From Escherichia coli (lineage in GTDB: Bacteria; Pseudomonadota; Gammaproteobacteria; Enterobacterales; Enterobacteriaceae), in NCBI RefSeq assembly GCF_024502345.1, contig NZ_JALDNN010000001.1: 64,000 nucleotides of DNA, one strand, 5' to 3'. The notes beneath the pieces were generated by a model, which saw nothing but the letters and a program-made list of their open reading frames with translations, made no database searches and was not told the DNA's origin. Each line of letters starts with the position of its first letter. The first letter of the stretch is position 1. Made by a program: the position numbers and the translations under genes. Positions 443-41,274 of the stretch are shown here, in pieces.

Positions 443-2779
443 ATGAAGCAAATTCGTCTGCTGGCGCAGTATTATGTTGACCTGATGATGAAGTTAGGTC
501 TGGTGCGCTTCTCAATGTTGCTGGCGCTGGCCCTCGTCGTTCTTGCCATTGTGGTACAAATGGCGGTAACCATGGTGCTGCATGGTCAGGTCGAAAGCAT
601 TGATGTTATTCGTTCTATCTTCTTTGGTTTGCTGATTACGCCGTGGGCGGTCTACTTTCTATCGGTGGTCGTCGAGCAACTGGAGGAGTCACGACAACGT
701 CTGTCACGGCTGGTGCAAAAACTGGAGGAGATGCGCGAGCGCGATTTGAGCCTCAACGTTCAGTTAAAAGATAATATTGCCCAGCTAAATCAGGAAATTG
801 CCGTTCGTGAAAAAGCGGAAGCAGAACTGCAGGAAACCTTCGGCCAACTGAAAATTGAAATCAAAGAGCGCGAAGAGACACAAATTCAGCTCGAGCAGCA
901 ATCCTCATTCTTACGTTCCTTCCTTGATGCTTCACCCGACCTGGTTTTTTATCGTAACGAAGATAAAGAGTTTTCCGGCTGTAACCGCGCGATGGAGCTG
1001 CTGACCGGAAAAAGCGAAAAACAACTGGTTCATCTGAAACCTGCTGATGTTTACTCACCGGAAGCCGCTGCGAAAGTCATTGAAACCGATGAAAAAGTGT
1101 TCCGTCATAATGTGTCACTGACCTATGAACAGTGGCTGGATTACCCGGACGGGCGCAAAGCCTGCTTTGAAATCCGTAAAGTGCCGTACTACGACCGCGT
1201 GGGTAAACGTCACGGTTTGATGGGCTTTGGTCGCGACATTACCGAGCGTAAGCGGTATCAGGATGCGCTTGAACGGGCCAGCCGCGACAAAACGACGTTT
1301 ATCTCCACCATCAGTCACGAATTGCGTACACCGCTGAACGGTATCGTCGGCCTGAGCCGCATTCTGCTGGATACCGAACTCACCGCCGAGCAGGAAAAAT
1401 ATCTCAAAACTATCCATGTTTCGGCCGTCACGCTGGGGAATATCTTTAACGATATTATCGACATGGATAAGATGGAACGGCGCAAGGTCCAGCTTGATAA
1501 TCAGCCGGTTGATTTCACCAGCTTCCTTGCCGATCTGGAAAATCTCTCCGCATTGCAGGCGCAACAAAAAGGATTGCGCTTTAACCTGGAGCCTACGCTG
1601 CCATTACCGCATCAGGTCATTACCGACGGGACGCGTTTACGGCAGATCCTGTGGAACCTCATCAGTAACGCCGTCAAATTCACCCAGCAAGGCCAGGTTA
1701 CCGTGCGCGTGCGCTACGATGAAGGCGATATGCTGCATTTTGAAGTGGAAGACTCTGGTATCGGCATTCCGCAGGATGAGCTGGATAAAATCTTCGCCAT
1801 GTATTACCAGGTGAAAGACAGTCATGGCGGTAAACCTGCCACCGGCACCGGTATTGGTCTGGCCGTTTCTCGTCGTCTGGCGAAAAATATGGGCGGCGAT
1901 ATTACGGTTACCAGCGAACAGGGCAAAGGTTCAACCTTTACGTTGACGATCCACGCACCGTCGGTGGCAGAAGAGGTCGATGATGCGTTTGATGAAGACG
2001 ATATGCCTTTACCGGCGCTGAATGTGCTACTGGTGGAAGACATTGAACTGAACGTGATTGTTGCGCGTTCTGTGCTGGAAAAATTAGGTAACAGCGTTGA
2101 TGTCGCCATGACCGGCAAGGCGGCGCTGGAGATGTTTAAACCGGGCGAATACGACCTGGTGTTGCTGGATATTCAGTTGCCAGATATGACCGGGCTGGAT
2201 ATCTCTCGTGAACTGACGAAGCGTTATCCGCGCGAGGATTTACCGCCGCTGGTGGCCTTAACCGCTAACGTGCTGAAAGACAAACAAGAGTACCTCAATG
2301 CTGGAATGGATGATGTGCTGAGTAAGCCGCTTTCTGTTCCGGCGCTAACCGCGATGATCAAGAAATTCTGGGATACCCAGGATGATGAGGAGAGTACGGT
2401 GACGACAGAAGAGAACAGTAAATCAGAAGCATTGCTCGATATTCCCATGCTGGAACAGTATCTCGAACTTGTAGGACCGAAGCTGATCACCGACGGGTTA
2501 GCGGTGTTTGAGAAGATGATGCCAGGCTATGTCAGCGTGCTGGAGTCGAATCTGACGGCGCAGGATAAAAAAGGCATTGTTGAGGAAGGACATAAAATTA
2601 AAGGTGCGGCGGGGTCAGTGGGGTTACGCCATCTGCAACAGCTGGGTCAGCAAATTCAGTCTCCTGACCTTCCTGCCTGGGAAGATAACGTCGGTGAATG
2701 GATTGAAGAGATGAAAGAAGAGTGGCGTCACGACGTAGAAGTGCTGAAAGCGTGGGTGGCAAAAGCCACTAAAAAATGA
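443..2779 (+). CDS. arcB: aerobic respiration control sensor kinase ArcB
   Basis: 778 aa; N-terminal membrane segment, H-box (SHELRTPLN), ATPase, receiver and HPt regions; length and sequence as recalled for ArcB. Confidence 0.97.
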   Translation: MKQIRLLAQYYVDLMMKLGLVRFSMLLALALVVLAIVVQMAVTMVLHGQVESIDVIRSIFFGLLITPWAVYFLSVVVEQLEESRQRLSRLVQKLEEMRERDLSLNVQLKDNIAQLNQEIAVREKAEAELQETFGQLKIEIKEREETQIQLEQQSSFLRSFLDASPDLVFYRNEDKEFSGCNRAMELLTGKSEKQLVHLKPADVYSPEAAAKVIETDEKVFRHNVSLTYEQWLDYPDGRKACFEIRKVPYYDRVGKRHGLMGFGRDITERKRYQDALERASRDKTTFISTISHELRTPLNGIVGLSRILLDTELTAEQEKYLKTIHVSAVTLGNIFNDIIDMDKMERRKVQLDNQPVDFTSFLADLENLSALQAQQKGLRFNLEPTLPLPHQVITDGTRLRQILWNLISNAVKFTQQGQVTVRVRYDEGDMLHFEVEDSGIGIPQDELDKIFAMYYQVKDSHGGKPATGTGIGLAVSRRLAKNMGGDITVTSEQGKGSTFTLTIHAPSVAEEVDDAFDEDDMPLPALNVLLVEDIELNVIVARSVLEKLGNSVDVAMTGKAALEMFKPGEYDLVLLDIQLPDMTGLDISRELTKRYPREDLPPLVALTANVLKDKQEYLNAGMDDVLSKPLSVPALTAMIKKFWDTQDDEESTVTTEENSKSEALLDIPMLEQYLELVGPKLITDGLAVFEKMMPGYVSVLESNLTAQDKKGIVEEGHKIKGAAGSVGLRHLQQLGQQIQSPDLPAWEDNVGEWIEEMKEEWRHDVEVLKAWVAKATKK

Positions 2780-2891
2780 CCCCGGCTAGACCGGGGTGCG
2801 CGAATACTGCGCCAACACCAGGGAAATCTTGGCTGCGCCGTAAATTATTATGATGAGTTACAAGGGCACAGCACTGTTTTTCAGGCCGCAC
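2771..2891 (-). ncRNA. arcZ: ArcZ small RNA (SraH/RyhA)
   Basis: 121 nt; reverse complement reads GTGCGGCCTGAAAAACAGTGCTG...GGTCTAGCCGGGGTCATTTTTT, matching ArcZ as I recall it; 3' hairpin plus U-tract at 2771-2798 overlaps the arcB stop. Confidence 0.85.
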
Positions 2892-3008
2892 GCAGTTAAG
2901 ATAGCAAAACTTAAATGATTTGTTACATGAATCAGTTAAATGTGTGATGCGTACCATTTTTATTAAAAAAATTAATGTGTTTCAGTCAATTGCGAAAGGA
3001 TGATCACA

Positions 3009-3662
3009 ATGAAGAAAATTGGCGTAATTCTGAGCGGATGCGGCGTCTATGACGGTTCTGAAATTCATGAAGCGGTGTTGACGTTGTTAGCTATTTCACG
3101 CAGCGGTGCGCAGGCGGTCTGCTTTGCACCGGATAAGCAGCAGGTTGATGTTATCAACCATTTAACTGGCGAAGCGATGACGGAAACGCGCAACGTGCTG
3201 ATTGAAGCGGCACGAATAACGCGCGGTGAAATCCGTCCTCTGGCCCAGGCCGATGCCGCTGAACTGGATGCGTTGATTGTGCCGGGGGGGTTTGGCGCGG
3301 CGAAGAATTTAAGCAATTTTGCCACTCTTGGTAGCGAATGCACCGTTGACCGTGAATTAAAGGCGCTGGCACAAGCGATGCATCAGGCCGGAAAACCGCT
3401 TGGTTTTATGTGTATTGCCCCGGCGATGCTGCCGAAAATTTTCGATTTCCCGCTGCGTTTGACCATCGGTACTGATATCGATACCGCAGAAGTGCTGGAA
3501 GAGATGGGCGCGGAGCATGTGCCGTGTCCTGTCGATGATATCGTGGTTGATGAAGACAATAAGATTGTCACCACCCCAGCATATATGCTGGCGCAGAACA
3601 TTGCAGAAGCGGCGAGCGGCATTGATAAGCTGGTTTCCCGCGTGCTGGTTCTGGCTGAATGA
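3009..3662 (+). CDS. elbB: glyoxalase ElbB (DJ-1/PfpI-like)
   Basis: 217 aa from ATG at 3009 (track ORF starts 9 nt earlier); [21 protein letters not shown]. Confidence 0.9.
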
Positions 3663-24360: not shown

Positions 24361-24607
24361 AATCTCGCGCTAACAACCTGGAATCGAGCCGTCATACTAC
24401 GGCGCAACGCCCTATAAAGTAAACGATGACCCTTCGGGAACTTCAGGGTAAAATGACTATCAAAATGTGAATTGTAGCTGACCTGGGACTTGTACCCGGG
24501 TCGGTATTTTTTTGCTTCTGGTCCCGGTGAGGAGTTATGCCGGGCAGGCCGAACAGCCGGGGTGGGTGAAGACTTGCCCCATCAGGAATATTCAAGAGGT
24601 ATAACAA

Positions 24608-31164: not shown

Positions 31165-31251
31165 GCCGAGGTGGTGGAATTGGTAGACACGCTACCTTGA
31201 GGTGGTAGTGCCCAATAGGGCTTACGGGTTCAAGTCCCGTCCTCGGTACCA
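31165..31251 (+). tRNA. leuU: tRNA-Leu (anticodon GAG)
   Basis: 87 nt; acceptor stem GCCGAGG/CCTCGGT, anticodon loop CTTGAGG, long variable arm, 3' CCA encoded. Confidence 0.9.
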
Positions 31252-34153: not shown

Positions 34154-34230
<77 letters not shown>

Positions 34231-34351
34231 CTTTCCCTTAGAGTCCTTTTTCAAATATACTGTGAAGACTTCGGCCTTCGTAGTGGGATTTGAAAAAATC
34301 CTTCTGGAAAGTGCTCCAGACCGCAGTTGCGGTTATAGGGTTCAGTTATAT

Positions 34352-34378
34352 AAAGCCCCGATTTATCGGGGTTTTTTG
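34352..34378 (+). terminator. terminator/attenuator-like hairpin between metY and rimP
   Basis: AAAGCCCCGATTTATCGGGGTTTTTTG; a second weaker hairpin plus T7 run follows at about 34398-34420. Confidence 0.5.
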
Positions 34379-34436
34379 TTATCTGACTACAGAATAACTG
34401 GGCTTTAGGCCCTTTTTTTATGTCTTGGGGGTGGGC

Positions 34437-39114: not shown

Positions 39115-39188
39115 GTAGGCCGGATAAGGCTTTTACGCCGCATCCGGCAGCCGTTGCCTGATGTGACGCTGGCGCGTCTTATCAGGCC
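39115..39188. repeat. REP (repetitive extragenic palindrome) pair
   Basis: GTAGGCCGGATAAGGC...ACGCCGCATCCGGCA and GCCTGATGTGACGCTGGCGCGTCTTATCAGGCC. Confidence 0.7.
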
Positions 39189-40662: not shown

Positions 40663-41137
<475 letters not shown>

Positions 41138-41274
41138 AGGTTCGCGCGGCTAATGAGAGGCTTTACCCACATTGGGCTGGGTTAGGGTTGTCATTAGTCG
41201 CGAGGATGCGCAGAAGATCGGGTATTAACACCAGTGCCGTAAGGTACTGTCTAAGAAAGAGAAAGGATATTACA

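Follow-up and report, generated by a model that had tools for sequence, protein, structure and literature searches.

The arcZ small RNA gene of a non-K-12 Escherichia coli strain and its conserved overlap with the 3' end of arcB

Within the 64,000-nucleotide stretch of DNA analyzed here (the window), we find that the minus strand of positions 2771-2891 is, on the strength of sequence comparison, almost certainly the arcZ gene of an E. coli strain other than K-12. ArcZ was discovered in 2001 and has been studied extensively since then; the feature is accordingly already known, and the copy in the window is identical to the reference. An sRNA annotation with exact coordinates can now be added at this position. 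The genes that make up the locus are as follows:

443-2779, plus strand: arcB, coding for a sensor histidine kinase of 778 amino acids (open reading frame list, Pfam and K-12 annotation).
2771-2891, minus strand: arcZ, coding for the full-length 121-nt ArcZ sRNA, with the +1 position at 2891 and the 3' end at 2771/2772 (K-12 identity, Rfam and Term-seq).
3009-3662, plus strand: elbB, divergent from arcZ (K-12 annotation mapped onto the window).

Read on the ArcZ strand, positions 2771-2891 of the minus strand give a 121-nt sequence running GUGCGGCCUG...GGGGUCAUUUUUU. When the entire window was searched against Rfam, the ArcZ family (RF00081) was recovered at 2784-2891 on the minus strand with a score of 120.8 bits (e-value 4e-27), as against a gathering score of 66, and the match covered model positions 1-106 of 106; it ends at 2784, 13 nt short of the actual 3' terminus, because the RF00081 model stops inside the terminator. 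Alignment to the arcZ locus of K-12 MG1655 (b4450) revealed no divergence, with 121 of 121 positions identical. The covariance-model match and this alignment both bear out the initial annotation, which had recognized the 121-nt ArcZ sequence on this strand. The flanks from 2675 to 3193, including the arcZ promoter region, are also fully identical to K-12, and 44 of 5001 positions differ from it in the surrounding 5 kb; the host is therefore E. coli, but not K-12. The locus is carried by 5416 of 5426 complete E. coli genomes, 5266 of which are at least 99% identical to the window over 2600-3100. The predicted fold of the ArcZ RNA has an energy of -42.3 kcal/mol (z = -2.7). Automatic annotation with PGAP left arcZ out of an E. 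coli genome with the identical sequence. Nothing counts against the identification as ArcZ.

The transcription start of ArcZ has been mapped by 5' RACE, as cited in a review (PMC11331407), and the sequence upstream of it contains two elements:

2898-2926, minus strand: arcZ promoter of the extended -10 type (read from the sequence relative to the +1 at 2891, with the hexamers being putative assignments).
2919-2947, minus strand: a block conserved across genera that lies over and upstream of the -35 element (TCACACATTTAACTGATTCATGTAACAAA), and is a candidate operator for phosphorylated ArcA (ArcA-P).

The promoter elements on the minus strand comprise a -35 hexamer GTAACA (2926-2921), a 17-nt spacer, a TGn motif (2906-2904) and a -10 hexamer TATCTT (2903-2898), and both hexamers are invariant in 17 species of Enterobacteriaceae, in which the TGn motif and the upstream block likewise show little or no variation. 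A simple promoter scan missed this promoter because it has 8 of the 12 consensus matches and the scan needs 9 of 12; we rejected this negative result, as the promoter is of the extended -10 type and is invariant across genera. ArcA-P has been reported to bind the arcZ promoter and to repress arcZ when oxygen is low (PMC11331407), and the conservation of the promoter and of the sequence upstream of it appears to fit this published repression.

Placing the consensus structure and the processing site known from the literature on the transcript gave the following anatomy:

2833-2872, minus strand: 5' stem-loop (GCUGUGCC...GGCGCAGC) from the Rfam consensus structure, in the variable 5' part that is removed by processing.
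2824-2828, minus strand: RNase E motif GA↓UUU (the arrow marks the cut), ArcZ nt 64-68, read from the sequence as a predicted site.
2771-2826, minus strand: processed 56-nt active form of ArcZ, nt 66-121 (literature cut site placed on the sequence).
2808-2823, minus strand: conserved core and target-pairing region CCCUGGUGUUGGCGCA, ArcZ nt 69-84 (from the sequence, with its role taken from the literature).
2795-2819, minus strand: stem-loop 2 (GGU...GCGC AGUAUUC GCGC ACC) from the Rfam consensus structure.
2779-2797, minus strand: Rho-independent terminator hairpin of arcZ, with an 8-bp stem and the loop CUA (terminator scan and RNA fold).
2771-2776, minus strand: U6 tail of ArcZ, the complement of the final two Lys codons of arcB (AAA AAA), read from the sequence.

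RNase E, whose consensus is RN↓WUU, is reported to cut ArcZ at GA↓UUU immediately 5' of CCCUGGUGUUGGCGCA and thereby to release a 56-nt 3' fragment (PMC11331407). The window has this motif followed by the core at ArcZ nt 64-84 (window 2828-2808), and the position of the cut site places the 56-nt processed form at 2826-2771. It had been stated initially that ArcZ is processed to a short 3' fragment that acts with Hfq on targets including rpoS, which agrees with the same review. At the 3' end of ArcZ the terminator stem (2797-2779) is followed by CA and then by six uridines at 2776-2771, so that the GC-rich hairpin and U6 tract noted earlier at the end of the RNA are indeed present. Extracts of the Term-seq table of Adams et al. 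2021 (PMC7815308) give a strong ArcZ 3' end at K-12 position 3350696 on the plus strand; this corresponds to 2772 in the window, one base inside the annotated end of ArcZ.

Expression, processing and regulation of ArcZ in the strain from which the window derives are carried over here from K-12 by sequence identity. On this basis, Hfq would bind ArcZ and cleavage by RNase E at GA↓UUU would free the 56-nt fragment, whose single-stranded core would then pair with its targets, namely the rpoS leader, resulting in activation, and flhDC and mutS, resulting in repression; phosphorylated ArcA would in turn repress the arcZ promoter at low oxygen. The translation of rpoS is reported to be activated by ArcZ through opening of the leader hairpin and blocking of Rho (PMC11331407). 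The best computed duplex between ArcZ and the K-12 rpoS leader has an energy of -22.1 kcal/mol, with 381 of 500 shuffled fragments being at least as good, which makes this comparison uninformative; the published rpoS site at -91 to -63 is overlapped only by a near-optimal duplex of -21.8 kcal/mol at -88 to -52.

The 3' end of arcZ is physically joined to that of arcB. The ArcB protein contains the expected set of Pfam domains, namely HKR_ArcB_TM, PAS, HisKA, HATPase_c, Response_reg and Hpt, and its C-terminus reads ...KATKK, followed by a TGA stop at 2777-2779. The two genes are convergent and overlap by 9 nt (2771-2779), equal to the overlap in the K-12 record NC_000913.3, which places arcZ (b4450) at 3350577-3350697 and arcB at 3350689-3353025 on the opposite strand. 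The claim that the last 9 nt of ArcZ overlap the arcB stop region thus holds in the window, as it does in the K-12 annotation. These 9 nt span the TGA stop together with the final two Lys codons of arcB, and the UCA between the stem and the tail of ArcZ corresponds to the arcB stop codon on the opposite strand. We also observe that the same six bases encode both the U-tail of ArcZ, which serves in termination and Hfq binding, and the conserved Lys-Lys of ArcB.

We then examined the locus in other bacteria by scanning one genome per species for the exact 29-nt core CCCTGGTGTTGGCGCAGTATTCGCGCACC, which includes the target-pairing region CCCUGGUGUUGGCGCA. At least 120 species of Enterobacterales have a match, in genera ranging from Escherichia to Proteus, Photorhabdus, Yersinia and Erwinia, and all the matches listed belong to Enterobacterales. 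The 120 other species among the matches listed, along with the window, provided 121 loci in which we located arcB by tblastn. Among these listed matches, arcB is convergent with arcZ in 118 of the 121 loci; the overlap measures 9-11 nt in 100 of these 118 (99 species and the window); and ArcB ends in KK in 101 of the 118. The exceptions to this overlap among the matches listed are 18 loci, mainly from Pantoea, Mixta, Pluralibacter and Morganella; for most of them, arcB either stops up to 10 nt before reaching the end of ArcZ or extends into it by no more than 2 nt. The gene elbB is upstream of arcZ and divergent from it in 77 loci among the matches listed. A previous account describes the arcB/arcZ overlap as usually being ten bases and as absent in Pectobacterium carotovorum (PMC11331407). 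The UCA or UUA that follows the hairpin is invariant even where the arcB stop has moved elsewhere, which hints at a constraint acting on the RNA side.

An alignment of the 115 distinct ArcZ sequences revealed a highly variable 5' half, with T66 and the positions beyond it being invariant or nearly so; within this region, the invariance of nt 69-97 and of stem-loop 2 follows by construction from the core search. The 5' half varies by genus, and different complementary stem arms are visible in the alignment. In the terminator stem 97.6% of the cells across the 115 sequences are paired, and three of the eight pairs change on both sides (GC/AU/GU), as compared with 25-63% paired in controls in which the 3' partner was slid by 1-3 columns. 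The terminator stem, as judged from this alignment, covaries.

Given that the terminator hairpin lies at the junction of the two genes, the initial annotation had proposed that it can terminate both convergent transcripts. This was the sole part of the earlier finding that went beyond textbook knowledge. Under this proposal the hairpin at 2779-2797 would be a bidirectional intrinsic terminator that ends the transcripts of both arcZ and arcB. The hairpin does come right behind the arcB stop, and its fold is just as good in the arcB sense, where it is preceded by an A6 run; it is also GC-rich and sits where two convergent transcription units end, as is characteristic of bidirectional terminators. 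Such terminators are known between convergent E. coli genes, and head-on collisions of RNA polymerases can enhance them, according to a study in which arcB and arcZ are not mentioned (bioRxiv 10.1101/2022.10.23.513370). However, the terminator scan called none on the plus strand, and what comes after the hairpin in the arcB direction is UGCGCGAAUACUGCGCC, which is complementary to ArcZ stem-loop 2 and has no U-run. Specifically, the plus-strand sequence after the hairpin is TGCGCGAATACTGCGCC, and the U-run (U6) is present on the minus strand only. This segment belongs to the part of the sRNA that does not vary, which makes a U-run on the arcB side impossible in any of the at least 120 species. 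The Term-seq extracts (PMC7815308) also point to an ArcZ end only: arcB and arcZ are each named three times in the file, two of the passages for each being the same rows, and the mentions of arcB all seem to fall on rows for arcZ. A separate 3' end in the arcB sense is not apparent in these extracts of the table, with the arcB mRNA possibly being too rare to be called, and a literature search for arcZ named as a bidirectional terminator returned nothing relevant. By the canonical sequence test, which the shared-terminator proposal fails, the hairpin is a terminator of the minus strand only; the proposal is not supported, and we regard it as quite unlikely. The hairpin may have a partial role in the termination of arcB, for example through pausing or head-on collisions of polymerases. 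Data on the 3' end of arcB would be needed before the shared-terminator idea is taken any further.

A second terminator in the arcB direction was also considered in the region antisense to arcZ, where in E. coli the strand opposite the ArcZ 5' stem forms a hairpin followed by ACUGUUUUU at 2874-2880. We do not claim it, as its fold is no better than that of shuffled sequences (z = -1.25) and most other genera lack the U-run.

The reading that we prefer is that the hairpin would terminate arcZ only, and that transcription of arcB probably continues beyond it, antisense to ArcZ. Reciprocal repression of arcB and ArcZ has been reported (PMC11331407), and read-through of arcB would allow it. If arcB transcription stopped at the hairpin, the stretch in common with ArcZ would be limited to the terminator and the tail, some 27 nt at most, and an antisense model is easier to satisfy with arcB read-through. 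Extending this, we tentatively raise the view, which we consider more doubtful than probable by some distance, that the overlap might be a two-way constraint and not a chance product of tight gene packing, with arcB read-through providing a built-in antisense partner of ArcZ and setting the strength of the feedback; in such a two-way constraint the arcB transcript would continue antisense to ArcZ because there is no U-run on the arcB side. If this were true, the amount of arcB read-through would determine how strongly ArcB and ArcZ feed back on each other.

One further feature of the region is an open reading frame that overlaps arcZ on the same strand:

2769-2957, minus strand: mechanical open reading frame of 62 amino acids, not a gene (open reading frame list).

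The notion that it encodes a small protein, making the locus dual-function, has a negligible chance of being correct: E. coli has the frame open from an ATG, and E. albertii, E. whittamii and a third other Escherichia genome likewise show no interruption, but in these three the ATG is ACG, and the frame is interrupted by stops in Citrobacter, Klebsiella and Pseudescherichia, with an open reading frame of at least 50 amino acids in the same frame being present in only 14 of 114 loci among the matches listed, with differing extents. A Pfam search with the 62-residue product found no family at e-values up to 1, and the frame is absent from both the K-12 annotation and one PGAP-annotated genome. 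Its ATG (2957-2955) is located inside the promoter, 66 nt upstream of the ArcZ +1, with the first 22 codons being promoter sequence; as a result, the known ArcZ transcript does not contain this ATG. The 15 nt 5' of the ATG consist of A and T only, with no Shine-Dalgarno sequence. The apparent conservation of amino acids among close relatives is accounted for by conservation of the promoter and the sRNA at the DNA level. The absence of a Pfam family and the loss of the start and the frame in relatives uphold the earlier opinion that the sRNA explains this frame better, and to the sRNA one may add the promoter. The open reading frame is spurious and should not be called as a gene.

Compared with known systems, the closest counterpart is ArcZ of K-12 itself (also SraH/RyhA; RF00081, b4450), with which the window shares the sequence, the promoter region, the arcB/arcZ/elbB gene order and the 9-nt overlap; there is no difference within the gene, and the strain of the window differs only in the surroundings (the above 44 positions). 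The bidirectional terminators of E. coli described from SEnd-seq, as cited in bioRxiv 10.1101/2022.10.23.513370, resemble this locus in having one GC-rich hairpin between overlapping convergent ends. The arcZ hairpin differs from them in that it has a U-run on one side, with the arcB side abutting the structured, invariant body of the sRNA. ArcZ also resembles other Hfq-dependent sRNAs that are matured by RNase E, such as MicL, which is named together with ArcZ in the above review (PMC11331407), and in which the active species is the 3' part. In these sRNAs, as in ArcZ, a conserved seed and a terminator with a U-tail are combined with a variable 5' part. Unlike them, ArcZ has a separate gene and a promoter of its own, and it overlaps the gene of the sensor kinase whose system represses it.

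The triplet that joins the terminator stem of ArcZ to its U-run (window 2777-2779, minus strand; UCA or UUA) was examined in our alignment of 115 distinct ArcZ sequences from the Enterobacterales, and its first and third bases (T113 and A115 in ArcZ numbering) are invariant in all 115. As these bases are retained even in lineages that have the stop codon of arcB at another position, such as Pantoea, the constraint on the triplet may act on the RNA and not on arcB alone.

Read in the direction of arcB, the sequence complementary to the 5' stem of ArcZ precedes ACUGUUUUU (2874-2880, plus strand), and the two together form a weakly terminator-like arrangement. Termination at this point would endow arcB with a 3' UTR antisense to nearly the whole of ArcZ. 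The fold preceding 2874-2880 in the arcB sense was no better than those of shuffled sequences, and conservation of the U-run across the 115 sequences is limited to the Escherichia/Citrobacter group. On the opposite strand, the Term-seq table of Adams et al. 2021 (Supplementary file 2; PMC7815308) places a Rho-dependent site antisense to arcB at K-12 3351461 (+), i.e. window ~2007 (-), inside arcB and 764 nt past the ArcZ 3' end. This site could belong to ArcZ transcripts that run past their terminator, or to a distinct antisense transcript.

A comparison of window 2600-3100 against 5426 complete E. coli genomes left 10 without any match and another 55 with query coverage below 80%; one match was plasmid-borne. 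The missing or partial matches possibly arise where the arcB-arcZ-elbB junction has been rearranged or has undergone an insertion or deletion. In E. coli C (NZ_CP029371.1, 1593-1821) the locus is 100% identical to that of the window, and its automatic RefSeq annotation contains arcB and elbB with no arcZ feature, whereas the curated K-12 record alone of the two annotates arcZ.

Further Rfam matches in the window, all above the gathering score, were:

24391-24512, plus strand, greA leader
31165-31248, plus strand, first of two tRNAs
34154-34227, plus strand, second of two tRNAs
34319-34419, plus strand, rimP leader
39118-39188, plus strand, naRNA4
40701-40815, plus strand, S15 leader
41045-41216, minus strand, SraG sRNA

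This complement of elements fits the arcB-to-pnp region of K-12.
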